Notes under the pieces: model-generated
Seen by the model: the letters and a program-made list of their open reading frames with translations, nothing else
The model's database searches: none
Told to the model about the DNA's origin: nothing
Program-made: the position numbers and the translations under genes
UHGV virus genome: UHGV-0117379
DNA from: a virus
DNA length: 35,783 bases
Strand: one strand, 5' to 3'
Shown: one piece after another, positions 736 through 27,877 of the stretch
Numbering within the stretch: position 1 is the first letter of the stretch
Layout: the number at the start of each line of letters is the position of its first letter

Positions 736-1788
736 TTACGGGGTAATGCCAACCGCTGCCGCCACTTTGTCGCCACTTGGCAGCGTTGCCAGAGGATTGA
801 AACGGAGCGCCGTTTCCAGATGATCCGGTGCCAGATGTGCGTAACGCATAGTCATTTTTATATCGTGGTGTCCGAGAATTTTTTGTAAGGCCAGAATGTT
901 TCCACCCGACATCATGAAGTGCGCCGCAAACGTATGGCGCAGAACGTGTGTGAGTTGACCGCGAGGGAGCACGATAGACGTTTTTTCCATCACGGATAAA
1001 AATTGAAAATAGCAGTCTGTGAAGAAATTGAACCCATCAAGCGCCATGATCTCTTCGTAAAGCTCTTTACTGATAGGGATGCTTCTGTTTTTCTTCCCCT
1101 TCGTTCTGACAAAGGTAATTCGGTATTTGGTCACCTGTGAGCGGGTAAGATTTACGGCTTCACGCCAGCGTGCGCCTGTGCTTAAGCATATCTTAACTAC
1201 CAGTGCCAGAATTGGGTCCTGACGTTTGCAATCAGCCAGCAATTCAACAATCTGCTCATGGGTAAGCCATGCCATCTCTTTTTCTGCGATGGTGAATTTT
1301 CGCATGTTCTCCAGTGGGTTCGGATACGACCATTCGCCCAGACGGGATAGTTCGCTAAAAACACTACTTAGATAGCTTTGCTCCAGGTTAATGGTGACCG
1401 GGCTTGCTCCTTTCTTCCATTTCTCGCTGAAGTAGATCTCGCCTGTCAGGCGTTTATCTCGATAGTGGGCAAACATTTTAGAGGTGAGATCGGTTGCAAG
1501 AGGATTGCCTAGAGCGTCAACCATCAGCAGCAATTTGTCATAGACATGCTGTCCAGCAGTCAGAGATTTACCATGTAGTTTGAACCATAGCTCAACCACG
1601 TCTTTCAGGGTTCGACGATCCACTGATTCGCCCAGCCAGGGCTTTGATTCGGTTTCTTCCATCGTGTGACGCTCAAAAGCCAGAGCTTCGCCTTTGGTGG
1701 CGAATTGTTTACGCACACGACGCCCACTTCGTCCGGCGGGGTAACATTCGCAAAGCCATTTCCCTGTGGTGAGTTTTCGTACTGCCAT
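736..1788 (-). CDS. int: Tyrosine recombinase / phage integrase (P2 Int family)
   Basis: ORF 736..1944. The likely start is the ATG at 1788 (MAVRKLTTGKW...), giving 350 aa. C-terminal catalytic motifs are present: ARWRE (Arg), HVLRHTFA (His-x-x-Arg) and GHHDIKMTMRYAHL (catalytic Tyr). Positioned at the prophage end and transcribed toward att, as in P2/186. Confidence 0.9.
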   Translation of the reverse strand: MAVRKLTTGKWLCECYPAGRSGRRVRKQFATKGEALAFERHTMEETESKPWLGESVDRRTLKDVVELWFKLHGKSLTAGQHVYDKLLLMVDALGNPLATDLTSKMFAHYRDKRLTGEIYFSEKWKKGASPVTINLEQSYLSSVFSELSRLGEWSYPNPLENMRKFTIAEKEMAWLTHEQIVELLADCKRQDPILALVVKICLSTGARWREAVNLTRSQVTKYRITFVRTKGKKNRSIPISKELYEEIMALDGFNFFTDCYFQFLSVMEKTSIVLPRGQLTHVLRHTFAAHFMMSGGNILALQKILGHHDIKMTMRYAHLAPDHLETALRFNPLATLPSGDKVAAAVGITP

Positions 1789-1976
1789 AAAAAATGCCCT
1801 CCAGTAGAGAGCATTTTTACTGTATGTATAACCAGTGTCAATGTATGAAATCCTACGACCATACATCTCACTGAAGCCATAATGAAGTTGGCTATTCTTT
1901 TTGCTATGTGAGCATGTAACTTTTGCGGTTAACCTGCGGCTCATTTTTATTTTAGACGCAGATATAAAAACAAAAG

Positions 1977-2183: not shown

Positions 2184-2840
2184 CTATTTAACATACTTGA
2201 CTGTTAAACTTATAATTTTACCAATTATTTCAATGTCTTCTATCTTGCATTCGAAGGCTCTGTTTCCACCCTCGACGAAGATTCTTCCACCGGGTAAACG
2301 AGTAATGTCACGGATCGTTATTTCGCCATCAATACTTATTACCCATTTACCATCACGTATATCATCAAATTCTTTATCACAAATAAATTCAGAATTGTTA
2401 TCTGTGATGACAAAAGGTTTTTTAAACGTAGAGGGTAGAAATCCCTTATCAAAAATATAAAAACCGTCTTTCTGCAATGCTCCATCAGACAATAAATATT
2501 TTTCTACTTCTATAGTATTTGTATTTGCTGATGCTTGCTTTGAACCATGCCCTGTTGTTAGCCAATTAAGCGAGGTGCCCGTTTCAAGGGCGCACTGGAT
2601 TACCCAATCTGCTGGAAAAATATCACGCATATAGCGCGTTGCCATGGTGCTCTTAGAAACACCTAAATGATCACAGAGAGCCTGACGAGTACCGAACCCA
2701 TATGCTTCAACTAAACGTTCTATGGCTTTCTTACCGCCGCTATTGAAATCCACAAGTCCTCCAAAGAAATCCAAAATTCGTTGACAGATTCCAAAAGCGA
2801 TCTTAAAGTTGAACCAGAAGTGTTCTTTTGGAGCCTTCAC
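2184..2840 (-). CDS. cI: 186-type CI immunity repressor (N-terminal HTH, C-terminal oligomerisation domain)
   Basis: Similar to remembered phage 186 CI (..AYGF...HCALETG..L.WLLTG.G; LSEGALKSDGFYI; TIRE/DLT.LPGG.I.V.GG...FEC). The ORF opens with GTG at 2840. A GTG at 2753, preceded by GGAGGA, would give 189 aa (186 CI is about 192 aa) and would leave room for pR, so the start is ambiguous. Confidence 0.8.
   Translation of the reverse strand: MKAPKEHFWFNFKIAFGICQRILDFFGGLVDFNSGGKKAIERLVEAYGFGTRQALCDHLGVSKSTMATRYMRDIFPADWVIQCALETGTSLNWLTTGHGSKQASANTNTIEVEKYLLSDGALQKDGFYIFDKGFLPSTFKKPFVITDNNSEFICDKEFDDIRDGKWVISIDGEITIRDITRLPGGRIFVEGGNRAFECKIEDIEIIGKIISLTVKYVK
2781..2809 (+). promoter_or_regulatory. 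Candidate early lytic promoter pR (TTGACA-17 nt-TAAAGT) driving the apl-cII-A operon
   Basis: TTGACA at 2781..2786, a 17-nt spacer, then TAAAGT at 2804..2809. Oriented toward the early operon that starts at 2899. Lies in the cI/apl switch region, as in 186. Confidence 0.5.
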
Positions 2841-3102: not shown

Positions 3103-3166
3103 TAGACGTCTATTTTCGCAATAAGACGCTGAGTTCGATTTTGCGATAAGTTCGGAGTTGAAAACC

Positions 3167-3676
3167 ATGTTTGATTACCAAGTTTCCAAACATCCACATT
3201 TTGATGAAGCCTGTCGTGCATTCGCACTGCGCCACAATCTGGTGCAACTGGCAGAACGTGCGGGCATGAATGTGCAGATTCTGCGGAACAAGCTGAACCC
3301 AGCTCAACCTCATTTATTAACCGCACCAGAAATCTGGCTGCTTACCGATCTGACTGAAGATTCAACGTTGGTAGATGGTTTTCTGGCACAGATTCATTGT
3401 CTGCCATGTGTACCGATTAATGAGGTAGCAAAAGAGAAACTGCCACATTACGTCATGAGTGCAACCGCAGAGATCGGGCGTGTTGCTGCAGGTGCGGTAT
3501 CTGGCGATGTAAAAACCAGTGCAGGTCGTCGTGATGCTATCAGCAGCATTAACTCTGTAACACGACTGATGGCGCTGGCGGCTGTTTCATTGCAGGCCCG
3601 TTTACAGGCTAATCCTGCGATGGCGAGTGCAGTTGATACCGTGACTGGCCTCGGTGCTTCATTCGGTTTGCTGTGA
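3167..3676 (+). CDS. cII: 186-type CII lysogeny-establishment activator
   Basis: Near-colinear with remembered 186 CII ([21 protein letters not shown]...[20 protein letters not shown]...[28 protein letters not shown]...GASFGL). ATG at 3167, 9 nt after GGAG. Confidence 0.85.
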
Positions 3677-5266: not shown

Positions 5267-6120
5267 GCACCATCCTGAAATGGGCGGGTAATAAAACCAC
5301 CATTATGTCCGAACTGAAAAAATACCTTCCTGCTGGCACGCGACTGGTTGAACCTTTCGCGGGTTCTTGTGCTGTGATGATGGAGACGGATTACCCCAGC
5401 TATCTGGTTGCGGATATTAATCCTGATTTAATCAACCTCTATAAAAAGGTTGCTGCTGATTGTGAGGCGTTTATATCTCGTGCCAGAGCTTTATTTGAGG
5501 AAGCAAACAGAGAGGTGGCTTATTACAACATAAGGCAGGAGTTTAATTACTCCACTGAAATTACTGATTTCATGAAAGCGGTATATTTTCTGTATCTCAA
5601 TCGTCATGGTTACCGTGGGCTATGTCGCTATAACAAGAGCGGGTATTTCAACATTCCCTACGGTAATTATAAAAATCCGTATTTCCCTGAAAAAGAAATT
5701 CGCGCATTTGCAGAGAAAGCCCAGCGGGCAACGTTTATCTGCGCCAGCTTTGATGAAACGCTGGCGATGTTGAAGGCGGGGGATGTGGTGTATTGCGATC
5801 CGCCTTATGACGGTACGTTTTCCGGCTATCACACTGATGGCTTCACTGAAGATGACCAGTATCACCTGGCATCCGTTCTTGAACATCGATCATCTGAAGG
5901 TCATCCGGTCATTGTTTCTAACAGTGACACATCCCTGATCCGTTCGCTGTATCGCAATTTTACTCACCACTACATCAAGGCAAAACGCAGCATCGGCGTG
6001 GCAGCTGGTGAGAGTAAATCTGCAACAGAAATCATCGCTGTTTCCGGGCCGCGCTGCTGGGTAGGATTTGATCCTTCGCGTGGCGTGGATTGTTCCGTCG
6101 TGTACGGAGTGCGTGCATGA
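5263..6120 (+). CDS. dam: Dam-type N6-adenine DNA methyltransferase (D12 class)
   Basis: N-terminal LKWAGNK...EPFAGS (SAdoMet binding) and the catalytic DPPY motif ([10 protein letters not shown]). ATGA overlap with the upstream gene. Confidence 0.9.
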
Positions 6121-8531
6121 GCCATGCTGATATGAACAACTGCAGCGGCTTTAACGAGGTCGCCGCAGCATTCTCATGGAACAGCCCGAAAAAGGCCATT
6201 AACCCTTATCTGGACCCGGCGGAAGTTGCGCCGGTTTCTGCGCTTTCAAACCTGATCACTCTGTACGCTGCCGATAACGAGCAGGAACAACTGCGCCGCG
6301 AGGCACTGAGTGATCAGGTCTGGGAGCGTTATTTCTTTAATGAATCCCGTGATCCTGTCCAACGCGAAATGGAGCAGGATAAGCTAATTAGCCGGGCAAA
6401 GCTGGCGCATGAGCAGCAGCGTTTTAATCCAGACATGGCCATTCTGGCGGACGTCAACGCCCAGCCTTCCCATATCAGCAAGCCGCTGATGCAACGTATT
6501 AAATACTTCAGCAGCCTGGGCAGGCCAAAGGCTTATTCCCGCTATTTGCGTGAGACGATTAAGCCATGCCTGGAACGACTGGAGCATGTACGCGACAGTC
6601 AGCTATCCACTTCTTTTCGCTTTATGGCAAGCCATGAAGGGCTGGACGGCCTGCTGATCCTGCCTGAAATGAGTCAGGATCAGGTGAAACGCCTGTCCAC
6701 CTTGGTAGCTGCGCATATGAGCATGTGCCTTGATACAGCTTGTGGCGATTTGTATGCCACCGATGATGTTACGCCAGAAGAAATCCGCAAGACATGGGAA
6801 AAGGTGGCAGCGGAAACCCTGCGTCTGGATGTTATCCCGCCTGCGTTTGAGCAACTCCGTCGGAAAAGAAACCGCCGTAAACCCGTGCCTTATGAACTCA
6901 TTCCTGGTTCGCTGGCGCGTATGTTATGCGCCGACTGGTGGTATCGGAAATTATGGAAGATGCGTTGCGAATGGCGGGAAGAGCAGTTGCGTGCTGTTTG
7001 CCTGGTCAGCAAAAAAGCATCTCCCTATGTCAGCTATGAAGCCGTGATGCATAAACGTGAGCAGCGCCGTAAGTCGCTGGAGTTTTTCCGTTCTCATGAA
7101 CTGGTGAACGAAGACGGCGACACGCTGGATATGGAAGACGTGGTAAACGCCAGCAGCAGCAACCCTGCGCATCGCCGCAATGAGATGATGGCCTGTGTTA
7201 AAGGTCTGGAGCTTATCGCGGAAATGCGCGGTGACTGCGCCGTTTTCTACACCATCACCTGTCCGTCACGTTTCCATTCCACGCTAAATAACGGCAGGCC
7301 CAACCCGACCTGGACAAATGCGACGGTAAGACAAAGCAGTGATTATCTGGTCGGTATGTTTGCTGCATTTCGTAAGGCGATGCACAAAGCCGGATTACGC
7401 TGGTATGGCGTGCGGGTGGCTGAGCCGCATCATGACGGTACAGTTCACTGGCACCTGTTGTGTTTTATGCGCAAAAAAGATCGCCGCGCCATTACTGCTT
7501 TGTTGCGTAAGTTTGCCATTCGTGAAGACCGCGAGGAGCTGGGTAATAACACGGAACCACGCTTTAAGTCTGAGCTGATAAACCCGCGCAAAGGTACGCC
7601 AACAAGCTACATCGCGAAATACATCAGTAAGAACATTGACGGGCGTGGTCTGGCTGGCGAGATCAGCAAGGAAACGGGTAAATCCCTGCGTGATAACGCC
7701 GAATACGTTAATGCCTGGGCGTCTCTGCATCGTGTTCAGCAATTCCGCTTCTTTGGCATTCCGGGGCGTCAGGCTTACCGTGAACTGCGATTGCTGGCTG
7801 GTCAGGCGGCAAGGCAACAGGGGGACAAAAAAGCAGGTGCGCCGGTACTGGATAACCCGCGCCTTGATGCCATCCTGGCTGCCGCTGATGCTGGCTGTTT
7901 TGCCACCTACATCATGAAGCAGGGCGGCGTACTGGTTCCCCGCAAATATCACCTCATCAGAACCGCTTATGAAATCAACGAAGAGCCGACCGCCTATGGC
8001 GATCACGGTATTCGTATTTATGGCATCTGGTCACCCATTGCAGAGGGCAAGATCTGCACTCATGCGGTGAAGTGGAAAATGGTTCGTAAGGCCGTTGACA
8101 TTCAGGAGGCGGCAGCCGACCAGGGCGCTTGCGCCCCTTGGACTCGTGGCAATAACTGTCCCCTTGCTGAAAATTTGAACCAACAAGGGAAAGACAAATC
8201 AGCTGATGGGGATACCAGAACGGAGATCACCCGCATGGATGACAAGGAGTTGCACGATTACCTGCACAGTATGAGCAAAAAAGAGCGCCGGGAACTGGCA
8301 GCAAGGTTACGCCTGGTGAAACCGAAATGGCGTAAAGACTACAAACAGCGAATTACAGAGCATCAGCGTCAGCAGCTCGTCTATGAACTGAAGTCCAGAG
8401 GATTTGATGGCAGCGAGAAAGAGGTCGATCTGCTCCTTCGCGGTGGCAGTATTCCGTCAGGAGCAGGCCTGCGTATCTTCTATCGGAACCAGCGTTTGCA
8501 GGAAGATGATAAGTGGCGGAACCTGTATTAA
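6117..8531 (+). CDS. A: Replication initiation endonuclease gpA (rolling-circle HUH nickase)
   Basis: 804 aa. HUH-type motif [13 protein letters not shown] and tyrosine motif [10 protein letters not shown], as in P2/186 gpA. ATGA overlap with dam. Confidence 0.9.
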
Positions 8532-9403: not shown

Positions 9404-9622
9404 ATGTCAAGTATCGCCGCATTGAAGCTGGGTAATCCAGTTGAACGTTTGGCACGGGTTCTGAAAGAGAACCAGGACAAGCTCAATCTGAGTAAAGATG
9501 GTTTTGTGTCCGTAGATTTGTCCAACGAAGAAGCTATGAAAGCCATCCGAGATCAGATGGATAAGCTTGAAGGCATCAAAACGAGCACTGTTAAAGCAAA
9601 ATATTATTACAGAACCCGATAA
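9404..9622 (+). CDS. Hypothetical soluble 72-aa protein; first gene of a coupled two-gene cargo operon
   Basis: ATG at 9404 follows AAGGAGGGG. Its stop TAA (9620..9622) overlaps the ATG of the next gene (ATAATGG). Confidence 0.65.
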   Translation: MSSIAALKLGNPVERLARVLKENQDKLNLSKDGFVSVDLSNEEAMKAIRDQMDKLEGIKTSTVKAKYYYRTR

Positions 9623-10464
9623 TGGCAACATTACTTTTAGCAGTGATTTTGGTTAGTGGTTTTATATATGTAAACCTATCACTTTCAACACGTTATAGAT
9701 ATAAGCGTTCCAATGGCTGGGACGCTTATTTTTTTGTGGCTGCATGGGGAATTGTCTTTTTCCTCGCTGGCGGCTTCCTTACCTTCGCTCTTAACATCAG
9801 CGGTGGGTTTCGCTGGTTTTCTAATGCGCTGAATCTGACTCCAGACAGCTTTAACGGGATGTTATCCACCACAACCGATAAACCGCAGCGCATCAATGAA
9901 ATTAAGCAAATCGCGTGGGTTGTGATTTCAATAGTTCTCGCGGCGCTGTTCGGTTGGCTAAACAAACGCCGTACTTCAAAAGGGGATCGCCGTTGGGATG
10001 CACTGGCAAAGGCAGTGGGAAACAATGCTTTTGAATCGCTGCTCATGGAAGCATCAGCTCGCCAGTTTCCTATCATTGCTACACTTTCATCACGCAAAAT
10101 CTATGTAGGGCTGGTGACTTGCCCTGCGTTGGAAAATGGATTGTCGGAACACCTTGAAATTCTCCCCTTGCTGAGCGGATATCGTGATAAAGACGACCTA
10201 ACGATAAATATCACGACAAACTATCATCAGCACTATCTTGATAGCGGTGTTATCAATGGGATGTCGCGCCTGAATATCCAGGATTTCCGTGTGCTTCTCC
10301 CTAAAGATGAAGTTGAAACCATCTCGTTTTTTGATACTGAAACGTATAACAAATTTAAAGAAAACGAAGCGCGTGACCGGAAAGACTGCCGCAAGTTGGG
10401 TGGTAAAAAGCCATCCGCACGCAGGAGAAAGACTGCTGGCGACGCAGAGCAGGGTAGTGCATGA
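9622..10464 (+). CDS. Hypothetical inner-membrane protein (280 aa; 3 N-terminal TM helices, cytoplasmic C-terminal domain and basic tail)
   Basis: Hydrophobic segments at about aa 2-21, 35-57 and 97-113. The C-terminal part of about 160 aa has no recognised motif. Followed by an intrinsic terminator. Occupies the tin/old cargo position. Confidence 0.7.
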   Translation: MATLLLAVILVSGFIYVNLSLSTRYRYKRSNGWDAYFFVAAWGIVFFLAGGFLTFALNISGGFRWFSNALNLTPDSFNGMLSTTTDKPQRINEIKQIAWVVISIVLAALFGWLNKRRTSKGDRRWDALAKAVGNNAFESLLMEASARQFPIIATLSSRKIYVGLVTCPALENGLSEHLEILPLLSGYRDKDDLTINITTNYHQHYLDSGVINGMSRLNIQDFRVLLPKDEVETISFFDTETYNKFKENEARDRKDCRKLGGKKPSARRRKTAGDAEQGSA

Positions 10465-10512
10465 CTATGCTGCATGAATTTGCATGATCGTTTGAGGATC
10501 GTTTTAGCTCCG

Positions 10513-10537
10513 GCCCGCCAGTTCAGGCGGGCTTTTT
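10513..10537 (+). terminator. Rho-independent terminator (GCCCGCC-AGTTCA-GGCGGGC-TTTTT)
   Basis: Perfect 7-bp GC stem, 6-nt loop and T5 run, 49 nt after the stop at 10464. Confidence 0.8.
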
Positions 10538-10581
10538 CATATCTCATGCAGGTGCATGAAAACCACTACACAAAGCGGGCA

Positions 10582-10600
10582 GGCGTGGCGGGGATACGAG
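10582..10600. other. cos cohesive-end site (GGCGTGGCGGGGATACGAG)
   Basis: The first 13 nt are identical to the remembered 186 cohesive end (GGCGTGGCGGGGAAAGCAT) and near-identical to P2 (GGCGAGGCGGGGAAAGCAC). The following CGCGCGCT also resembles the P2 left end (..TGCGCGCTGA). Confidence 0.6.
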
Positions 10601-10608
10601 CGCGCGCT

Positions 10609-10637
10609 CATTACTTTTATAATTCTAGGGTTATAAT
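10609..10637 (+). promoter_or_regulatory. Candidate promoter of the KAP NTPase gene (two TATAAT hexamers at 10618..10623 and 10632..10637)
   Basis: Two consensus -10 hexamers lie 29-48 nt upstream of the ATG at 10666. AGGAG SD at 10654..10658. The -35 elements are weak. Confidence 0.4.
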
Positions 10638-10665
10638 ACAGGGCTATCTTTCTAGGAGAAAACAC

Positions 10666-12318
10666 ATGTCCTTAGAGTTTATCAAAGAACAGTTGTCAGA
10701 TTTTATCTCATCTACAGAACCAGAAGTAATGGCTATACAGGGTGAATGGGGAATTGGTAAAACCTATACTTGGAATACGTTCCTAAAAGATAATAAAGAT
10801 AAGGTTGCATTTAATAGATATAGTTATGTCTCTCTTTTTGGTATAAATTCACTAGATTCTTTAAAGTATTCTATTTTTGAGAATGCAATTACAAAGGAAT
10901 ATATTGGAAATAAACCTGATTTGGAGACAGCAACAACAAACGCAAGTGGACTTTTTGAATCGTTTTCTCGAAAAGCCGCAGGTTTGTTAAAAGAAGCTCC
11001 TGTTGTAAAAAACTTCTCTACGACACTTGAAGCAATGTCATTTCTGACCGTTTCTAAAATGATTGTAGTAATAGATGACTTAGAAAGGCGTGGCAAAAAC
11101 TTAGATGTTAAAGATGTTTTAGGGCTAGTATCTCTATTAAAGGAGCAGAAGGATTGTAAGGTGGTTCTATTGCTTAACAATGGCACAGCTAGTATGGAGG
11201 ATTATTCTACTTATAAAGAAAAGGTCATTGATAGAGATATCACTTACAATCCAACACCAGAAGAATGCGCAGATATAGCCTATAAAGGTGATTTTCATGT
11301 TTATAACTTGTTAAGTAAATATTCCATTTCTTTAGGTATCAAGAATATTCGAATCTTAAAAAAGATAGAACGTTTTTTCGTGTCCTTAACACCAAATATT
11401 ATAGGTGATGTTGAGACAATTTCAAATGAAGTTGCGCATTCATTAACTCTGTATTGTTGGAGCCATTACGGATTTTCTCCAGAGGGAGATGTGCCATCAC
11501 TAGAATATATTAGGGGAGTGAGGAATATATATACTTATAATGACAAGGAAGAAGGCCATGAGAAAGTCTGGCTTAATACCTTGCTTAAATATGGATATAG
11601 AAAAACGAATGATCTTGATGAGGTTCTTATTGATATGGTTAGATATGGCTATCTTGATAAGAGCAGTTTCCAAAGACAAATAAGCCTAAGGAATGAGGAG
11701 ATTACGCGTGATAATAAACGAGGTTCCTTATCTGAGGCATGGCAGTTCTTTCATAATTCATTTGATGACAATCAAAATCAGGTTGTTGACAAGCTATATC
11801 AAGCGGTGGTTGATGGGATGAAGTATGTGACTCCAAGTGATTTAGATAATGTTGTCGGACTATATAGGGATTTCGGAGAGAATGCTAAGGCGAGTGAATT
11901 GATTGAACAGTTTATTAATTATGGTAACGATGCTCTAAAGGAATATGTTCAATCTATTTATGTGAATGTTCATCCCGTAAGAGATGCTGAGTTGTTGTCA
12001 AAAATTCAAGCCTATTCTAATATTATAAATATTGATGGTTCAATATATGATGTTCTTAAGAAATTATCAGGTCAGAATGGTTGGTCTGATAGACATGAGG
12101 AAATATTGGATGCTGCTTCAGTAGATGACTACTATCAATTATTTAAAAATGTCATTCTTGATGGTGGTGATTCAATAATAGCTACGGCGCTTAAATTCGG
12201 AAATTATAGTAATGGTTCTGATAGAATGAATCGTATAGGGAAAAAGGCAAGGGATGCCTTGATAAGAATTGGAGATGAATCGGCGATTAATAAAATACGT
12301 GTAAGGCGATTTTTGTGA
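10666..12318 (+). CDS. KAP-family P-loop NTPase (550 aa, no inserted TM helices)
   Basis: Walker A GEWGIGKT (10741..10764), Walker B IVVIDDLER (11062..11088) and a downstream NIRILKKIERFF motif fit KAP NTPase signatures (GxWGxGKS/T; hhhhDDLDR; PRxIKRFxN). Strongly AT-rich (20/60 GC in 11101..11160). The start is taken downstream of the terminator and cos, which lie inside the longer ORF 10474..12318. Confidence 0.8.
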   Translation: MSLEFIKEQLSDFISSTEPEVMAIQGEWGIGKTYTWNTFLKDNKDKVAFNRYSYVSLFGINSLDSLKYSIFENAITKEYIGNKPDLETATTNASGLFESFSRKAAGLLKEAPVVKNFSTTLEAMSFLTVSKMIVVIDDLERRGKNLDVKDVLGLVSLLKEQKDCKVVLLLNNGTASMEDYSTYKEKVIDRDITYNPTPEECADIAYKGDFHVYNLLSKYSISLGIKNIRILKKIERFFVSLTPNIIGDVETISNEVAHSLTLYCWSHYGFSPEGDVPSLEYIRGVRNIYTYNDKEEGHEKVWLNTLLKYGYRKTNDLDEVLIDMVRYGYLDKSSFQRQISLRNEEITRDNKRGSLSEAWQFFHNSFDDNQNQVVDKLYQAVVDGMKYVTPSDLDNVVGLYRDFGENAKASELIEQFINYGNDALKEYVQSIYVNVHPVRDAELLSKIQAYSNIINIDGSIYDVLKKLSGQNGWSDRHEEILDAASVDDYYQLFKNVILDGGDSIIATALKFGNYSNGSDRMNRIGKKARDALIRIGDESAINKIRVRRFL

Positions 12319-12325
12319 TTTTTAT

Positions 12326-12347
12326 AGGGGTGATTAACCCCTTTTTA
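12326..12347 (+). terminator. Short hairpin plus T-run (AGGGG-TGATTAA-CCCCT-TTTTA) after the KAP gene, abutting the convergent Q stop codon
   Basis: 5-bp GC stem at 12326..12330 / 12338..12342 followed by a T-rich run. Confidence 0.5.
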
Positions 12348-12348
12348 T

Positions 12349-13380
12349 CTAATTTAATGAGTAATCATTAAATGCTATGATTTTTTCATTTAGCCAAGTA
12401 TTAATTTCTATAAGCCTTTTTTGTAACGGAATTAATTCATTTCGGACAAAGACTTTACTAGCCTTTTCCACATCCCCAAACCCCCCAACATTATTCGGCA
12501 TTATCCCCATCATTTGCGGCGGCACGCGGTGTGCCGCCATCATGTCGTCCCGGCTCACGTTCTTAATATTCAAAAACTCATCCTTCGCTGCGACCTCTGA
12601 CAACGGGATAATCTGAAGCCCGTCCTTTTTGCCGTTAGGCGAGTACATAAACAGGTTGCGGAAGTTGCCCGGACCTTTGGCGCTTTTCATCGCATTGCGG
12701 AGGTTGTTCACATCTTCCTGGTTCTGCGCGGCATCGGTCATGTACATGATGAAGCCTGCATGACTGCCGTTAATGTAATACTTCCGGCGGAACAGCGTGG
12801 CGGACTCGTTGAGCAGGGCTGACGGAATGGCAGAAAGATAACCTGGCAGGCCGTAGATCTCCTGGTTGATGTCCGGTTCCATCAGATGAAAAATGCTGCC
12901 TTTCGTGAACTGATACTGCTGGGTTGTAATACCATATTGCACAAACCAGTAGGTATCCAGGTCTAATCCGCGTCGGGTGTATTTTGCCAGCGCAGGTTCA
13001 AGGGCGATAACTTCACCGAAGCGGTTCGTGCGTTTCTCCAGGTAGGCGTTACCAAATACCAGATAGTCCTGCACAAAACGTGAAAAAGCCTGCTGGCTGA
13101 GCAGCGGGTGAGGGATATAGGTGCTGGTCAGAATATTGCACTTTACTGCAATCGGTGAGCTGTGATGCACGGCGGCGCGGAAGGCTCGCGCCAGTCCGTC
13201 AAAACTCACTGGCGGCTCATACCAGCGATCTGTCTGTACGCATTCCACATAGTCCAGTCGTTCGCGGCGATCCAGTACTGGAATGGGATCGCCGAAGCTG
13301 AATGCTTCGGCTGAAGTCTGGCTTTTATGCTGGGTCTGGTTCTGCGACGCAGCGCGGTTCTTCTTACTCTTTCCCATCAA
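12349..13380 (-). CDS. Q: Portal (capsid packaging) protein gpQ
   Basis: 343 aa. Position and orientation match P2 Q, upstream of cos and co-transcribed with P. The last ~40 codons are AT-rich, unlike the rest of the gene. Confidence 0.9.
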   Translation of the reverse strand: MMGKSKKNRAASQNQTQHKSQTSAEAFSFGDPIPVLDRRERLDYVECVQTDRWYEPPVSFDGLARAFRAAVHHSSPIAVKCNILTSTYIPHPLLSQQAFSRFVQDYLVFGNAYLEKRTNRFGEVIALEPALAKYTRRGLDLDTYWFVQYGITTQQYQFTKGSIFHLMEPDINQEIYGLPGYLSAIPSALLNESATLFRRKYYINGSHAGFIMYMTDAAQNQEDVNNLRNAMKSAKGPGNFRNLFMYSPNGKKDGLQIIPLSEVAAKDEFLNIKNVSRDDMMAAHRVPPQMMGIMPNNVGGFGDVEKASKVFVRNELIPLQKRLIEINTWLNEKIIAFNDYSLN

Positions 13381-15143
13381 AAAATCTCCACAATATTACT
13401 GGTATTGGCGGACTCGCCCTGCAGTGGTTCGTTAAACAGTGCGTGCATTGTTGCCCACGCCAGATCGGCGTGGCTGGTTTCTTCGCTGCGGCTGGCTTCA
13501 TACGTCGGGCGGTTGCCACTGGCGGTGGTGGCGCGACGGATTGCCATGAATGACTGCGCAATGTCGGTGTGCCCGGCGTCAAACTCCAGACGGCGGTGGC
13601 TGATAATGTCGTAGGCCTTGAGTACCAGAGCGTTTTTAACGTTGGGGTTGTAGACAAACTCCCGGACGGCAGGAAAAAACGCTTTCACGTTCTCGTAAAC
13701 CCCGTGACCGACGCCGGTTGAGTCGATACCGATGTATGTCACGTTGTACTGTTCAGTCAGTTTTTTGATGGCGTCAGCCTGGGCGCGGAAGTCCATCCCG
13801 CGCCACTGGTGACGCTCAAGAATGCGGAACTTACCGCCCGGCACGGCTGGCGGTGCCACCACCACGCACCCGGCGCTGTCGCCGTTTTGCGTACCTTTTG
13901 CCGGGTCATAACCGATCCACACTTCGCGCCAGCCAAACGGGCGCAGGGCCAGTGCATGAAAGTCGGTCCAGACTTCCCAGCTGTCCACCATGCACGCCTG
14001 CAGCTCGCTGAGCGGAAACACGGACGCGAGATCGTCCACAAACTCGCACATCAGCAGGTTCTGGTATTCGTCCGGGCTGTACTCCATGCGCAACTGGTCG
14101 AGATCGAACAGGTTACATCCGCCGCGCACAGCATCTTCCACGGTGACTATCTGGCGGTATTGCCCGTCTGCGCACAGCAGGCCGGGGGCCAGATTGCTGT
14201 GGGACAGGTCGATGTCCACCTTATCGGCTTTGTTGCGCCCACGGTTGAACAGCGCACCGGACCAGAACGGATAAGCACTGTGTGTCAGGCTGGATGGTGT
14301 GGAAAAATAGGTTTGTCGCCATTTTTTGTGAATAGCCATACCGGAAGCCACTTTGCGCAGCTCCTGGAATTTCGGTATCCAGAAATATTCATCCAGATAC
14401 AGGTTGCCGTGGTAACTCTGGGCCGTGCGGGCATTGGTGCCGAGGAAGTAAAGCGTAGCCCCGTTAGGAAGCACCATCGGATCGCCTTTCAGCTCCACTT
14501 CCACTTCTTTGGCGAAGTCGATGATGTACTGTTTAAAGACGTGGGCCTGTGCCTTACTGGCGGAAAGGAAAATCTGGTTACGTCCGGTAAGCAGGGCGTC
14601 AATCAGGGCTTCACGGGCAAAGTAAAAGGTCGCGCCGATCTGGCGTGACTTCAGCAGGTTGCGGATGCGGTTGGTTTTTCCGGCTTCCCACCAGTGGCGC
14701 TGGTAGTTGAACATGGAGGAATGGAAGATTTCTTCCAGCTTCGCAATCTGTTCATCGGTGAAAACGTTCTTTTCCGGCTGACGACGCGGGCCTTTGTTGC
14801 GGTTGGCGACGTTAGGGTTTAAGTCGGCTTCGTTGCCGCCATTGTTAAACTTGCCGATCCGCGCGTGGCGCTCCGACTGGCGCGCCAGCAGGTCAATCTC
14901 TTTGAAATCTTTCCCTTCTTTGTGCTCCTTCATGATGAGCTGGCAGTAGCGTGCGGCGGTGGTGAGCTGCATCTGATCCAGCGGCCCATAGTCACCCCAC
15001 TTGTCGCGTTTCTTCCAGCTGTGAACGGTTGCAACTTTCTCGCCCAGCATTTCAGCAATGCGGGCTACGCGATATCCCTGAAAGTACAGCAGCATGGCCT
15101 GCCGACGGGGATCGAGATCTGCGGATGTCAGTGTGGTGTTCAT
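13377..15143 (-). CDS. P: Terminase large (ATPase) subunit gpP
   Basis: 588 aa. Its stop overlaps the Q start. Carries terminase-type Walker A-like (RQIGATFYF) and nuclease regions. Position matches P2 P. Confidence 0.9.
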   Translation of the reverse strand: MNTTLTSADLDPRRQAMLLYFQGYRVARIAEMLGEKVATVHSWKKRDKWGDYGPLDQMQLTTAARYCQLIMKEHKEGKDFKEIDLLARQSERHARIGKFNNGGNEADLNPNVANRNKGPRRQPEKNVFTDEQIAKLEEIFHSSMFNYQRHWWEAGKTNRIRNLLKSRQIGATFYFAREALIDALLTGRNQIFLSASKAQAHVFKQYIIDFAKEVEVELKGDPMVLPNGATLYFLGTNARTAQSYHGNLYLDEYFWIPKFQELRKVASGMAIHKKWRQTYFSTPSSLTHSAYPFWSGALFNRGRNKADKVDIDLSHSNLAPGLLCADGQYRQIVTVEDAVRGGCNLFDLDQLRMEYSPDEYQNLLMCEFVDDLASVFPLSELQACMVDSWEVWTDFHALALRPFGWREVWIGYDPAKGTQNGDSAGCVVVAPPAVPGGKFRILERHQWRGMDFRAQADAIKKLTEQYNVTYIGIDSTGVGHGVYENVKAFFPAVREFVYNPNVKNALVLKAYDIISHRRLEFDAGHTDIAQSFMAIRRATTASGNRPTYEASRSEETSHADLAWATMHALFNEPLQGESANTSNIVEIF

Positions 15144-19881: not shown

Positions 19882-20275
19882 AGCAGTGCCTTATGTCCGC
19901 AATAACCCGGACAAACTGCATCTGTTTGTGGATAACGGTTCGCTGGTTGCCACGGGGGCCAGCTCCATGTCATGGGAGTACCGCTATACCCTGAACGTGG
20001 TGATAGAGGATTTCAGCGGCGACCAAAATTTGCTGATGGCCCCGGTTTTACTGTGGCTGCGGGATAACCAGCCCGATGCCATCAATAACCCGGCGTTACG
20101 GGAAAAGCTATTCACCTTTGAGGTGGATATTCTGCGCAACGATGTCTGTGATATCAGCCTTAACCTGCAACTGACGGAACGTGTGCTGGTCAGCACTAAC
20201 GGCAGTGTGTCGAGCGTTGAAGCTATAGCGGAACCTGATGAACCTGAAGAAATGTGGACGGTGAAACGTGGCTGA
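19844..20275 (+). CDS. R: Tail completion protein gpR
   Basis: GTG at 19844 follows AGGAG. The N-terminus NKPQSLRHAINKAV...NPDKLHLFVDNGS matches remembered P2 gpR (LKPDSLRRALTDAV...NPDMLRIFVDNGS). Confidence 0.85.
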   Translation: MNKPQSLRHAINKAVPYVRNNPDKLHLFVDNGSLVATGASSMSWEYRYTLNVVIEDFSGDQNLLMAPVLLWLRDNQPDAINNPALREKLFTFEVDILRNDVCDISLNLQLTERVLVSTNGSVSSVEAIAEPDEPEEMWTVKRG

Positions 20276-20732
20276 ATTGCAGAAAGTGGACGACTGGCTG
20301 AGTGCCTTGCTGGCGAATCTGGAACCAGCCGCCAGAAGCCGCATGATGCGCCAGCTGGCGCAGGAACTGCGCCGGACACAGCAGCAGAATATCAGGATGC
20401 AACGCAATCCTGATGGCAGCAGCTATGAACCGAGGCGAGTAACAGCACGCAGTAAAAAAGGCCGCATCAAACGGCAGATGTTTACAAAACTTCGCACCAC
20501 AAAATACCTGAAAACCGCCGCCAGCGCGGATTCTGCCAGCGTACAGTTTGAAGGTAAGGTGCAGCGCATCGCCCGCGTTCACCTTTACGGCCTGCGTGAT
20601 CGCGTCAGTCGAAAAGGACCGGAGGTCCGTTATGCAGAGCGTCGTTTGTTAGGCATTGCTGAAAAAGAACAAAGTTTTATATTTTACACATTAATCAGTT
20701 GGTTACAGGAAAAGGGAGGGTTGCATAAGTGA
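20268..20732 (+). CDS. S: Tail completion protein gpS (its 3' end lies in AT-rich island DNA)
   Basis: GTG start overlaps the R stop. 154 aa in the P2 S position. The last ~25 codons (from about 20655) are AT-rich. Confidence 0.85.
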   Translation: MAELQKVDDWLSALLANLEPAARSRMMRQLAQELRRTQQQNIRMQRNPDGSSYEPRRVTARSKKGRIKRQMFTKLRTTKYLKTAASADSASVQFEGKVQRIARVHLYGLRDRVSRKGPEVRYAERRLLGIAEKEQSFIFYTLISWLQEKGGLHK

Positions 20733-20782
20733 GTTTATTTTACTTCAATGAAAATATAAAATCTGCTATATATAAAAACATT

Positions 20783-20791
20783 TGTTATAAT
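20783..20791 (+). promoter_or_regulatory. Extended -10 promoter element TGTTATAAT upstream of the island NTPase gene
   Basis: TGn plus a consensus TATAAT (20786..20791), 28 nt upstream of the ATG at 20820. AAGGA SD at 20806..20810. Confidence 0.5.
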
Positions 20792-20819
20792 GATATGATT
20801 TTCTTAAGGATAGGATGTT

Positions 20820-22331
20820 ATGCGCCCCAAAATTGGTGATTTTGAATTTGGTGAGGTTTATGGAGAGAATGAGGTATTATTTCTCGATAATTACTCGAAA
20901 TATTTTTATGATATAAATAATTCATTAAGTAAACTTGATAGAAAAAATAAAATGCTCGTAATTGGCAGGAAGGGGACGGGTAAGACATTGCTTGTTAATG
21001 TCTACTGTAACGCCAAGCGAAAAAATAATTATATTGCAGTTGTGGAATCATTAAAAGATTTTGTTTTTCATGAACTTACTCACTTTCAGGGGCAGGATGT
21101 GTCTTCCACAAAATATGTACCAATTTTCAAGTGGATGATATTGGTCAATCTTGCTAAGAATATTGTAAGTAATAAAAAAGGATTTAGTGAGGATAAAATA
21201 GTTCATTTGGAAAGTTTTTTACGTTCTTTTGGCCATGTCGCGGGCGAGTTAAGGCCTGAGCAAACAGTTGAAATAACTAGGGAGTACCAAGCGTCGGGTG
21301 AGGTTGGTATCGGATTTAGATTCCCAGTATTACGTGGTGAAGCCAAAGCAAAAGATGGTGAGGTCGAGAAAACAAAAGAAACAAAAAAGAATTATTTGGA
21401 ATGTATGGAATCTTTGCAGTGTTTTATTGTTGACATGCTAAAAGAGAGTAATAAAAAAATATATGTATTTTATGATGAGTTAGATGATAAGTTTGATGCA
21501 ACAGTTGAATATAAAAATGCAATGATAAGTTTTTTAAATGCTGTTGTGTCAATTAATAAAACTCTAATGCAAAATAAAATAGATGCTAAAATTGGTGCAG
21601 TTATTCGTCATGATATAATAAATACTTTTTCATCGCCGAATATTAATAAAATCATTGAAGATAACTCTGTTACACTTGATTGGTGTTCTGCTGGAGAACG
21701 AGCAAGTGATTCTGAGATTTTTGATATGATTGCTTTTAAGATCAAAAACTCCACTGATTATTATAATGATTTAAATGGTTCTAATTTGTTCGGGAAAATT
21801 TTCACTGAGAGAGTTGCAGGTGAGCATAGCTCTATTTATATTTTACATAGAACTCTAGGTCGCCCAAGAGATGCCGTTAGGATGCTAACTTATATTCAAG
21901 ATGAATATGGAGAAAATACTGAAAGATTTGAAAGTTCCATGTTTACAAAGATTTCTAAAAAATACTCATCTTATCTTTTACGTGAAATTAGATCTGAGCT
22001 TGCGGGACATTTAAGTGATTCAGAAATAGATGACAGTTTTTCTCTTTTACGTTCAGTAAAAAAAAGAGGTTTCACTCCACATTTAATCAAGGAAAAATTT
22101 GAAGAATTGAAGTTAGGAGATGGTACATTAACGCTTAATAAAATACTGAGTTGTTTATTTAAAGTCGGTGCTATCGGGAATGTACTCAGGAGATCTAAAA
22201 CAGATGGCGGAGATGTTTATTTGTGGTCATTTAATGATGAAGATTTAGAAATGGACCCAACGTTGAATTTTGAAATACACTGTGGTTTGTGGGATGCACT
22301 AGGAATTATCAAGCCTAAACTTAGGCAATAA
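20820..22331 (+). CDS. 503-aa P-loop NTPase of unassigned family (Walker A, long charged insert, Walker B, RPRD arginine motif, uncharacterised C-terminal domain)
   Basis: Walker A GRKGTGKT (20964..20987). Walker B IYVFYDELDD (21459..21488). RTLGRPRDAVRML (21849..21887) resembles sensor/arginine motifs of AAA+/KAP-like NTPases. Extremely AT-rich (14/60 GC in 21481..21540, versus 37/60 in 20341..20400). Confidence 0.8.
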   Translation: MRPKIGDFEFGEVYGENEVLFLDNYSKYFYDINNSLSKLDRKNKMLVIGRKGTGKTLLVNVYCNAKRKNNYIAVVESLKDFVFHELTHFQGQDVSSTKYVPIFKWMILVNLAKNIVSNKKGFSEDKIVHLESFLRSFGHVAGELRPEQTVEITREYQASGEVGIGFRFPVLRGEAKAKDGEVEKTKETKKNYLECMESLQCFIVDMLKESNKKIYVFYDELDDKFDATVEYKNAMISFLNAVVSINKTLMQNKIDAKIGAVIRHDIINTFSSPNINKIIEDNSVTLDWCSAGERASDSEIFDMIAFKIKNSTDYYNDLNGSNLFGKIFTERVAGEHSSIYILHRTLGRPRDAVRMLTYIQDEYGENTERFESSMFTKISKKYSSYLLREIRSELAGHLSDSEIDDSFSLLRSVKKRGFTPHLIKEKFEELKLGDGTLTLNKILSCLFKVGAIGNVLRRSKTDGGDVYLWSFNDEDLEMDPTLNFEIHCGLWDALGIIKPKLRQ

Positions 22332-22332
22332 T

Positions 22333-22365
22333 AAAAACGCCCTTTAATAGGGCGTTTTTATTTAA
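22333..22365 (+). terminator. Rho-independent terminator (AAAAACGCCC-TTTAATA-GGGCGTTTTT)
   Basis: Perfect 10-bp stem directly after the stop at 22331, followed by a T-rich run. Confidence 0.85.
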
Positions 22366-22393
22366 AGTTGTCATTCTTTCTTTAAATTATCAT

Positions 22394-22411
22394 TGTGCCA
22401 AATCTCTTACA
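22394..22411. promoter_or_regulatory. Candidate Ogr/B box TGT-N12-ACA of late promoter PV
   Basis: TGTGCCAAATCTCTTACA, between the island terminator and V. The dyad centre is only ~55 bp from the V ATG (versus ~86-88 bp at the O and FI promoters), so either the spacing or the V start is atypical. Confidence 0.4.
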
Positions 22412-22457
22412 ATTCTAAATAGATGAATTAGTCTTTGTTCTGTTTGATAATTTGGAA

Positions 22458-23036
22458 ATGAATACACAACTGACAGAAATCATGCGCCTTATCACCAACC
22501 TGATCCGCACTGGTGTAGTCACCGAAGTGGACAGGGAAAACTGGCTTTGCCGGGTGAAAACAGGCGACTTAGAAACCAACTGGATCAGCTGGCTGACCCT
22601 GCGTGCCGGGAATGCCCGGACATGGTGGCGACCATCGGAAGGTGAGCAGGTGGTGCTGCTGAGTCTGGGCGGCAATCTGGAGACCGCCTTTGCGCTGCCC
22701 GCTGTCTATTCGAATCAGTTCGCACCACCGTCGACGTCGGCGGACGCCTGCGTGACAGAACATCCTGACGGTGGCTGGTTTGAATACGAACCCGCCACCG
22801 GGCGCTGGTATGTCAGGGGCATCAAATCCATGGTTATTGAGGCTGCCGACAATATCACCCTGAAAACCAGTGAGTTTGTGCTGGAGGCTGACCGCACGCG
22901 TATTAATAGTGAAGTAGTGATCAATGGCGGCGTTACCCAGGGCGGCGGTGCGATGAGTTCTAACGGAATTGTGGTTGATGCACATCAGCATACTGGCGTC
23001 CTGAAAGGCGGCGACACAACCGGAGGCCCGGTATGA
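22458..23036 (+). CDS. V: Baseplate spike/assembly protein gpV
   Basis: MNT...IRTG...CRV.TG....W..WL..RAG..RTWW.PS.GEQV......G.L.TAF.LP..YS matches remembered P2 gpV. ATG at 22458, within ORF 22452..23036. Confidence 0.88.
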   Translation: MNTQLTEIMRLITNLIRTGVVTEVDRENWLCRVKTGDLETNWISWLTLRAGNARTWWRPSEGEQVVLLSLGGNLETAFALPAVYSNQFAPPSTSADACVTEHPDGGWFEYEPATGRWYVRGIKSMVIEAADNITLKTSEFVLEADRTRINSEVVINGGVTQGGGAMSSNGIVVDAHQHTGVLKGGDTTGGPV

Positions 23037-26435: not shown

Positions 26436-27037
26436 TGAATAAAGCCGTATTAAATAGCGAACTCATTACTACAAAGGCAGGAAACATTACCGTTTATAAT
26501 TTTGATGCTGAGACGAAGGAATATCTTTCCACATCAACCGAATACCTTGCTGTGGGTGTCGGTATTCCGGCGTATTCATGCTTAGATGCACCAGGTACAC
26601 ATAAAGCCGGTTATGCAATCTGCCGCTCTGCAGATTTTAACTCATGGGAATATGTGCCAGACCATCGCGGTGAAATCATCTATAGCACCGAAACAGGAGA
26701 ATCGAAAGAAATCACATCTCTGGGTGATTACCCTGAAAATACAACCACTATCGCCCCGTTAACGCCATATGATAAATGGGATGGTGAGAAATGGGTGACG
26801 GATACTGAGGCACAGCATAGCGCCGCAGTAGAAGCGGCAGAAGCACAGCGCCAGTCACTGATTGATGCAGCAATGTCTTCCATCAGTCTGATTCAACTGA
26901 AATTACAGGCCGGACGGAAGCTGACGCAGGCAGAAACAACCCGACTTAACGCTGTGCTGGATTATATTGACGCGGTGACGGCAACAGATACCAGCACCGC
27001 GCCTGATGTCATCTGGCCTGAACTGCCGGAGGCGTAG
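26435..27037 (+). CDS. G: Tail fibre assembly chaperone (gpG/Tfa family), currently expressed orientation
   Basis: ATGA overlap with the H stop. The C-terminus (..WPELPEA) and central coiled region are typical of Tfa proteins. Confidence 0.85.
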   Translation: MNKAVLNSELITTKAGNITVYNFDAETKEYLSTSTEYLAVGVGIPAYSCLDAPGTHKAGYAICRSADFNSWEYVPDHRGEIIYSTETGESKEITSLGDYPENTTTIAPLTPYDKWDGEKWVTDTEAQHSAAVEAAEAQRQSLIDAAMSSISLIQLKLQAGRKLTQAETTRLNAVLDYIDAVTATDTSTAPDVIWPELPEA

Positions 27038-27449
27038 GCCATTCAATATCTGGCGCACCGGAAGTATCGACCAGTTCCAGTGCGTCCAGATAATCCAGCC
27101 ACAAATTATATTGCACCAGTTCCTCACCTTTCAGGCGACCAATCGCCGCTTTACCAGGCCATTGCTTACTGTTTATGTATTCGTTGACCTGATTAATCAA
27201 TTGCTGCTTTTTCAGTTCGGCTGCGGCAATTTGTTCCTCATGAGTTGGCGGTGGAATATCAATCCATGCAGGCATTCCGTCGATGACACCTCTGTATTTT
27301 CCTTCTGGTGCTTCCTTCATAAATTCGGCAGCAACAGTGTCGTCAATTTCGATTCCATCATCGGGCCATTCGCCGGATTCCTGATAAGCGATTTTAAGCT
27401 CCACAGGGAAAAACGCATTTTTATCGGCACTGAAAATATATTTCTGCAT
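27009..27449 (-). CDS. Alternative tail fibre assembly chaperone (Tfa family), silent orientation
   Basis: 146 aa, convergent with G and overlapping it by 29 nt. The MQKYIFSADKNAFFP... N-terminus and ..IEWPTPP C-terminus are typical of the Mu U / P1 U / Tfa family. Confidence 0.85.
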   Translation of the reverse strand: MQKYIFSADKNAFFPVELKIAYQESGEWPDDGIEIDDTVAAEFMKEAPEGKYRGVIDGMPAWIDIPPPTHEEQIAAAELKKQQLINQVNEYINSKQWPGKAAIGRLKGEELVQYNLWLDYLDALELVDTSGAPDIEWPTPPAVQAR

Positions 27450-27451
27450 TT

Positions 27452-27796
27452 CTACCGTCCTATCGAAATATAACTGAATCTGTATTGCTGTGAGATATCA
27501 CTGGTTGCCACACGCCACGCTGAATTACTGATATGTTCAAAATTTACAGACAAAACCTGCGGGGCAGGAATCGACGGGTCTGACTGAACGGCATCAGACA
27601 TAACACTGACTGAAACCATCGGCTGATTAGGGAATGGTATAGGGAAGTGTCCACTGATAAAGCGGGTCGTGTTTCCTGAAAAAGTGCCAAACTGAACAAT
27701 ATATCCACCTGGTAGCCTGAACCATCCCGAACCAGAAGCGAATGCTCCCATATCCGGTATCTGATTATCTCCTGTGCCCACATCCCTTTTCGCCGC
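27452..27796 (-). CDS. Promoterless alternative tail-fibre C-terminal cassette (about 115 codons), fused in frame to H after inversion
   Basis: The reading frame continues across the crossover site (..GLGE|AAKRDVGTGDNQIPDMGAF...GWFRLPGGYIVQFG), like the variable parts of Mu S/S' and P1 S. The apparent start at 27850 has no SD and lies outside the crossover site. Confidence 0.75.
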   Translation of the reverse strand, partial: AAKRDVGTGDNQIPDMGAFASGSGWFRLPGGYIVQFGTFSGNTTRFISGHFPIPFPNQPMVSVSVMSDAVQSDPSIPAPQVLSVNFEHISNSAWRVATSDISQQYRFSYISIGR

Positions 27797-27822
27797 TTCT
27801 CCCAAACCAACGTTTAAGAAAA
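27797..27822. promoter_or_regulatory. 26-bp hix/gix-like invertase crossover site (right)
   Basis: TTCTCCCAAACC-AA-CGTTTAAGAAAA. Compare remembered hixL, TTCTTGAAAACCAAGGTTTTTGATAA. Confidence 0.75.
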
Positions 27823-27877
27823 TGCAGAGGTAACAGCTAACTGGCATCATCTCCGGTTTTTATTCAGGGGGATGATC

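Follow-up and report, generated by a model that had tools for sequence, protein, structure and literature searches.

The viral genome UHGV-0117379, a stretch of 35,783 nucleotides that we call the window, is an integrated prophage, a 186-like member of the P2 family. Between its cohesive-end site, cos, and the 3' end of the portal gene Q it carries one gene for a KAP-family P-loop nucleoside triphosphatase (NTPase). An earlier account made from the letters alone, hereafter the sequence-only reading, had proposed a soluble, prophage-encoded defence or exclusion factor. The gene lies in a compact cassette whose parts and surroundings are as follows.

6090..8531: replication gene A, the A-side border of the gpA-gpQ hotspot
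10492..10608, plus strand: conserved P2-family cos block, the left boundary of the cassette, from the P2 cosL alignment, a terminator scan and column conservation
10512-10533: terminator hairpin inside the cos block, scored strong by the terminator scan, which closes the cargo operon on the A side
10582-10600: 19-nt cohesive sequence GGCGTGGCGGGGATACGAG, from alignment to P2 cosL
10609..12348, plus strand: AT-rich single-gene cargo cassette, 34% GC, bounded on the left by the loss of conservation at 10609 and on the right by the Q stop at 12349
10618-10623 and 10632-10637, plus strand: two -10-like TATAAT hexamers
10654-10658, plus strand: Shine-Dalgarno sequence AGGAG, 7 nt before the ATG
10666..12318, plus strand: KAP coding sequence, 550 aa from an ATG start; RefSeq 'P-loop NTPase fold protein', WP_038431152.1
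12326..12347, plus strand: intrinsic terminator found by the terminator scan, a hairpin at 12326-12342 with a 6-bp GC-rich stem (AGGGG...CCCCT) and a T-run
12349..13380, minus strand: portal gene Q, the right boundary of the slot, outside the cassette; stop codon 12349-12351

The cassette at 10609..12348 is autonomous, with its own -10 element, Shine-Dalgarno sequence and terminator. The 550-aa open reading frame (ORF), both hexamers and the AGGAG described in the sequence-only reading were all reproduced, as was a terminator abutting the convergent Q gene: it ends 1 nt short of the Q stop, and the KAP and Q stop codons are 30 nt apart. The low GC content also stood, with 34.0% in the island (10609-12348) versus 50% in Q, 56.5% in the terminase gene P and 50.8% in the whole window; the earlier counts of 20/60 at 11101-11160 and 31/60 at 13081-13140, within Q, were recovered exactly. 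Alleles 77–79% identical to the window gene keep the second hexamer as TATAAT or TACAAT and do not keep the first, and judged by this pattern the second (10632-10637) is the likelier promoter element. These alleles have CGGAG at the Shine-Dalgarno position, and the hairpin at the terminator position differs in each of them, every allele having one.

The left border is set by cos. The cohesive sequence aligns to the annotated cosL of phage P2, GGCGAGGCGGGGAAAGCAC, and the GCGCGCT that follows, which confirms the 65-nt distance from cohesive end to KAP ATG given in the sequence-only reading. Across 86 unique P2-like cos regions, column conservation is mostly 0.6–0.99 from at least 10492 to 10608, with a few hairpin-loop columns dipping to about 0.4–0.5, and falls to a background of ~0.3 from 10609. 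The block is therefore asymmetric: conservation reaches ~90 nt into the A side, hairpin included, but just 8 nt beyond the cohesive end towards Q. Cloned sequences from P4 satellites show the same cos-GCGCGC-cargo junction (Rousset Table S2A; PMC9122126). Because Q-side cargo starts directly after GCGCGCT, exactly 8 nt past the cohesive end, exchange of cassettes by recombination between cos and the 3' end of Q would be the simplest explanation for this arrangement.

The encoded protein consists of an N-terminal NTPase module and a long C-terminal domain, and the three motifs named in the sequence-only reading are present at aa 26, 133 and 225.

aa 1-270 (10666..11475), plus strand: NTPase module, a P-loop core (aa 1-195) and a helical lid
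aa 26-33 (10741-10764), plus strand: Walker A motif GEWGIGKT
aa 133-141 (11062-11088), plus strand: Walker B motif IVVIDDLER
from aa 225 (11338-11379), plus strand: N-I-R lid motif, IKNIRILKKIERFF
aa ~291-550 (11536..12315), plus strand: all-alpha C-terminal domain without a recognised enzymatic fold or motif

Assignment to the KAP family, first made from these motifs, holds at the profile level. The match to Pfam KAP_NTPase (PF07693) aligns aa 8-193 with positions 6-224 of the 293-position profile, and its score of 29.6 bits exceeds the gathering score of 20. Of 47 relatives, 44 also match this profile at E<=0.01. An N-I-R-x-x-K-K sequence at aa 227-233, invariant or nearly so in the family, lies beyond the aligned part of the profile. 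ATPase_2, AAA_16 and NB-ARC of Pfam match below threshold. Among PADLOC models searched at E<=0.1, PDC-S49 (PDLC05031) matched at E 4.5e-28, with aa 6-429 on profile positions 9-441 of 624, and all 47 relatives matched it as well; there was also a marginal match to PDC-S20, and none to Tmn, PifA or any validated defence system. The protein is thus Tmn-unlike, as the sequence-only reading had it, and has no full-length match to a named, validated system, PDC-S49 being a candidate only. PHROG 4740, annotated 'unknown function', matches end to end (E 4.9e-124). An NCBIfam search returned nothing meaningful, and a PDB profile search gave no match below E 0.1.

The family is large and uniform. It comprises 4013 clusters (50% identity) at E<=1e-3 and 1062 at E<=1e-30, and among the best 150 of those 1062 nearly all members are 550–570 aa long and align over residues 1-549. 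Invariant positions include Walker A (GxWGxGKT), Walker B (DD-L-ER), N171, which ends strand 4, and R229 of the N-I-R lid motif. The ratio of nonsynonymous to synonymous substitution rates against the 77–79% identical alleles is 0.09–0.17 in both the N- and the C-terminal halves. The KAP gene is real and under purifying selection, and these patterns predict a functional enzyme with a constrained C-terminal domain.

The KAP family, named after Kidins220/ARMS and PifA, usually has two or four transmembrane (TM) helices associated with the NTPase domain. The highest Kyte-Doolittle mean over 19 residues in the window protein is 1.35, at the Walker B strand, and so indicates no TM helix. Among 268 relatives, 11 have a 19-residue window of at least 1.6, mostly at the buried Walker B strand; the remaining windows, outside the Walker A-B interval, are a probable start-codon extension (P0085) and a lid helix (P0241). 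By hydropathy, none of the 268 has a TM-like segment between Walker A and Walker B, which extends to the family a feature that the sequence-only reading had pointed out for this protein. We predict that the KAP protein is soluble and cytoplasmic.

An AlphaFold2 model built from 47 homologues, with a mean predicted local distance difference test score (pLDDT) of 83, gives this architecture a three-dimensional form. A five-stranded P-loop core (aa 1-195) precedes a lid made of helices (aa 198-270) and an all-alpha domain, which in the model spans aa 298-550. A hydrophilic helical insert (aa 63-127, partly of low confidence) separates strands 2 and 3 of the core and occupies the place of the TM hairpins in membrane KAP NTPases. 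The C-terminal fold is modelled as of the helical-repeat type, like STAND sensor domains, and without a catalytic fold. No winged-helix or other DNA-binding domain was found after the lid, and no nuclease, protease, TIR/SIR2 or pore domain in the protein. The C-terminal domain is probably a sensor or interaction domain.

We next consider the slot that the gene occupies. The P2 defence hotspot, a validated one in the literature, has gpA and gpQ as its limits and takes in the two sides of cos (PMC9122126; PMC13586616), and the window gene lies within it, between A (6090..8531) and Q (12349..13380), in a slot of variable content; here the sequence-only reading was right. We retrieved 80 P2-like loci via the portal protein, one genome per species; in 60, cos as well as the Q stop could be located. 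The cos-Q gap is 600–3500 bp in 50 of the 60 and 150–270 bp in the other 10, with a median of 1605 bp over all 60; in P2 it is 167 bp. Occupied slots hold ~56 unrelated protein families of at least 150 aa, nearly all transcribed from cos towards Q like the KAP gene. The 55 non-KAP representatives include AbiLi, AriA (PARIS), Old, GajA/PtuA-type ATPases, TIR and SIR2, as well as Schlafen, RES, AbiC, DndB and HNH proteins, and E. coli examples of such cargo are an AAA ATPase + HNH pair and SieB. KAP-family genes occupy the surveyed slot in Citrobacter (79% identity), in an Enterobacteriaceae isolate and in two Pantoea (40–41%). The P2 hotspot is two sub-slots split by a conserved cos block of ~115 bp.

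Homologues in IMG/VR follow the same order. About 43 of 47 full-length homologues (36–100% identity) are arranged cos, gene, Q, in loci whose portals diverge down to 61–64% identity. Placement on the Q side of cos, which the sequence-only reading considered unusual, is therefore the common one, both for this gene and for cargo in 50 of the 60 surveyed prophages. In two loci, L126 (cos 7983..8001) and L142, from phages whose portal is 61% identical, cos is a perfect P2-type site (GGCGAGGCGGGGAAAGCAC) and the homologue (43% identical) lies on its A side; the family is placed on both sides of cos. No full-length homologue of at least 36% identity in IMG/VR stood in a cos-positive, Q-negative (P4-like) context, P4 marker genes not having been searched for.

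Beyond P2-like phages, lambdoid prophages of Cronobacter and Klebsiella aerogenes carry family members in their nin-type region, in one case with an AbiJ-like gene as neighbour, and a further member lies in an integrative element of Pseudomonas. Members at 25–27% identity are present in Burkholderia phages and in a phage-plasmid of E. coli. The family is carried as a lone gene from Enterobacterales to Pseudomonas, Shewanella and Burkholderia phages. Among complete E. coli genomes, 128 of 5426 (~2%) have the gene at coverage of at least 80%, annotated 'P-loop NTPase fold protein'. Deposited phages gave only 50-nt cos-region matches at the DNA level and protein matches of at most 30% identity.

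Two E. coli loci show the gene in altered surroundings. E. coli WCHEC020031 (NZ_CP033401.1, locus L084) and related genomes carry KAP together with an 883-aa HsdR_N protein in a decayed P2 remnant that adjoins ybjL and retains a truncated terminase and a gene D fragment. In the WCHEC020031 record the annotated coding sequence starts at an earlier ATG, corresponding to window position 10474, and is 614 aa long; since this ORF would run across cos, the annotation is probably a start-codon mis-call. In E. coli W137 (NZ_CP163067.1) IS2 interrupts the KAP gene, which matches in two pieces over 3.1 kb, an example of gene loss.

The gene has also been catalogued before. Rousset et al. 2022 list WP_023147874 and WP_053891075 as 'KAP_NTPase' in the P2 hotspot (Table S5A; PMC9122126), and both are 98.5–99% identical to the window protein. 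The KAP gene and its slot position are common, and we class the protein as a new candidate member of an already known kind.

Among characterised proteins the precedent is PifA of the F plasmid, a founding KAP member that has no TM helices; according to the summary in PMC13001434, its exclusion of T7 is abortive. Both proteins are single polypeptides on mobile elements with an N-terminal KAP-type P-loop and no TM helices. They have in common the motifs GxWGxGKT, hhhhDDL(D/E)R and, following strand 4, Y-x-(E/Q)-K-h-I; each also has a long C-terminal part of unknown fold, and both presumably exclude other phages. However, only the cores align (aa 16-199 with PifA 43-271; hhalign E 1e-3, probability 20%), and PifA is 741 aa long with an unrelated C-terminal part. 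The PADLOC PifA model misses the window protein and matches only 2 of the 47 relatives, at 2e-3. PifA belongs to a pifCAB operon under a repressor, whereas the window gene stands alone. We reject orthology with PifA, there being no full-length homology. A defensive KAP NTPase without TM helices is nevertheless a classical case.

The nearest profiles, PDC-S49 and PHROG 4740, represent single-gene, phage-borne proteins of the same architecture, although the PDC-S49 match covers only part of that profile. Two KAP systems known to protect resemble the window gene by description. EF_KAP combines a KAP P-loop with a C-terminal region of unknown function, protects Enterococcus and requires both Walker B and the C-terminal region (PMC13552941); Reve is a protective single-gene KAP system from the cos-adjacent P4 hotspot (PMC13586616). 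Each is described as a single gene with a KAP P-loop and a ~300-aa C-terminal region without a known domain, and the P4 satellites that harbour Reve share cos with P2. EF_KAP, a Firmicutes protein, differs in its two TM helices, of which one lies within the NTPase domain.

Tmn, which the sequence-only reading took as its reference and against which it found the lack of TM helices unusual, is a less apt comparison. It now counts as a member of the distinct YobI family, carries two TM helices within its P-loop domain and forms a membrane decamer that exports Mg2+ (2026 preprint, PMC13001434). PifA itself has no TM helices (PMC13001434), so that such helices do not strictly define the KAP family. 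Tmn is likewise a single-gene P-loop NTPase defence system, and its ATP turnover is triggered by a phage protein (PMC13001434), but the window protein has neither a PADLOC Tmn match nor a TM segment. Identity with Tmn or another named system is rejected, PADLOC having given only PDC-S49 and the marginal PDC-S20. STAND proteins of the Avs/NLR-like kind differ in other ways: the window protein has no N- or C-terminal effector domain and no clear tetratricopeptide repeat array, and all its STAND Pfam matches are below gathering scores.

Combining these observations, we propose that the KAP cassette encodes a stand-alone, PifA-like anti-phage factor, an explanation we hold to be probable with moderate confidence. 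The predominance of defence genes in the slot suggests such a role, and recurrent carriage by prophages as a lone gene, independence from the neighbouring genes, intact catalytic residues and retention in a decayed P2 remnant speak for it too. The KAP protein would be made from the prophage in the lysogen and would act alone, in superinfection exclusion or abortive infection in the manner of PifA. By design, aa 1-270 would be a nucleotide switch of the AAA+/STAND-like type, fused to an all-helical domain specific to the family (aa 291-550). The helical domain would recognise a protein or structure of the infecting phage, and recognition would license nucleotide binding and hydrolysis; the NTPase module would then change its conformation or oligomeric state, which would stop the infection. 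Since no effector domain is recognised, we infer that the output would be either the NTPase itself, through nucleotide consumption, or sequestration or remodelling of the target. The defence function and the C-terminal sensor role are likewise deductions, and in any particular output mechanism we have much less confidence than in the stand-alone anti-phage role.

Several points weigh against this proposal. The PDC-S49 match ends at aa 429, and the last 120 aa differ. The similarity to PifA is weak and confined to the NTPase core. With no recognisable effector domain, the output step is speculative. A sigma-70 consensus scan called no promoter, because neither TATAAT has a recognisable -35, and expression in the lysogen is accordingly an assumption. 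The P2 hotspot also holds non-defence cargo, partition systems and toxins having been reported there (PMC9122126), and the Rousset table of systems evaluated for defence has no KAP entry (PMC9122126). Our literature searches found no experiment on this protein or a close relative, and no mention of PDC-S49, a computational candidate.

A more radical reading is that KAP proteins without TM helices constitute a new form of immunity in which the NTPase is the effector, either through trigger-activated nucleotide depletion or through ORC/Cdc6-like loading onto DNA. In the latter version, loading on the DNA of a competing phage or P4-type satellite would block its replication or cos-dependent packaging. 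This reading draws on the lack of an effector domain, the fixed length of 550–570 aa in >1000 clusters and the repeated placement at a cos end, and if it were true the cos-adjacent position would be functional rather than a by-product of cassette exchange. We consider it unlikely.

It is doubtful, too, that the protein is a STAND-like NTPase confined to sensing, with an effector that the host or another element provides in trans, or else a selfish addiction or toxic module without an anti-phage role. The missing effector domain and the weak NB-ARC and AAA_16 matches speak for the first of these. A specific trans partner is, however, hard to reconcile with the spread of the single gene across such varied hosts and elements, and in the neighbourhoods examined no antitoxin-like small ORF is conserved beside the KAP gene.

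The gene might also serve the phage itself, for example as an ORC/Cdc6-like ATPase acting on DNA ends, in replication or in packaging, or in counter-defence. Such service is improbable, as P2 and the majority of P2-like phages do without KAP: among the 60 surveyed prophages, 46 have unrelated genes in the slot and 10 have it empty. The family lies far from any cos in lambdoid prophages and the integrative element, and on the other side of cos in L126. The protein lacks a DNA-binding domain after the lid, and a composition of 34% GC marks exchangeable cargo.

The sequence-only reading had further suggested that the KAP protein may work with partners, pointing to 9404..10464, which holds the two genes immediately across cos.

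9404..9622, plus strand: 72-aa protein, PHROG 9843, overlapping the next gene
9622..10464, plus strand: 280-aa protein, PHROG 3630, with three hydrophobic segments and a weak DUF2207_C match

A multi-gene system of this kind would use the 280-aa membrane protein as effector or anchor for the soluble NTPase. The pair adjoins KAP in the prophage, the three hydrophobic segments would supply the membrane link that KAP is missing, and the trio recurs in Salmonella with a KAP allele 41% identical to that of the window. Yet pair and KAP assort independently. P2-like prophages of both E. coli and Salmonella widely carry the pair; in E. coli it occurs with AAA + HNH, with SieB or with an empty Q-side slot, and three survey loci (L016, L020, L025) have it without KAP. 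The A side of KAP loci, in turn, may hold DinI only or an HsdR_N-domain protein, and about 44 of the 47 viral KAP loci lack the pair. Its frequency is no higher among KAP loci (~6%) than among P2-like prophages generally (~8%). In the Salmonella trio the pair is 94% identical to the window version and KAP only 41%, a contrast that points to modular reassortment and not co-inheritance. The strong terminator at 10512-10533 and cos lie between the two parts, which places them at opposite ends of the virion DNA. Given this independent assortment, we reject a partnership of KAP with 9404..10464, and such a system is highly improbable.

One viral locus departs from this pattern of independence. At L136 (2230..5413) a 79-aa ORF, a 269-aa ORF and a 41% identical KAP gene stand in a row, all on the Q side of cos, and the 269-aa product is 27% identical to the 280-aa membrane protein of the window. 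This recurrence would favour the three-gene arrangement, of which it is the only hint.

The remainder of the prophage has the expected landmark genes.

736..1944, minus strand: integrase
2184..2840, minus strand: CI repressor
3158..3676: CII/CP76
13377..15143, minus strand: terminase P, with capsid and tail genes beyond

A second AT-rich island (20750..22450, 31.7% GC) holds a 503-aa ORF at 20820..22331 on the plus strand, between a tail-completion gene (20268..20732) and a baseplate V-like gene (22452..23036). This ORF has no Pfam or PADLOC match; its position is presumably that of the non-essential orf30 of P2, and it is probably another unannotated cargo or defence candidate. At the tail-fibre end, the region 27006..28444 contains a Hin/resolvase-type invertase (27872..28444; Resolvase + HTH_7, E 7e-53) adjoined by opposed short ORFs (27006..27850). 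This region is presumably a host-range inversion switch.

A stand-alone, PifA-like anti-phage role for the cos-Q gene would bear on both the family and the hotspot. If the protein is protective, it would add a widespread soluble branch to the small set of anti-phage KAP-type NTPases. At 550 aa, with no need of a membrane and no recognisable effector domain, it may offer a tractable model for how KAP NTPases pass from recognition to arrest, a question that has stood since PifA. The survey, for its part, sharpens the map of the P2 hotspot.

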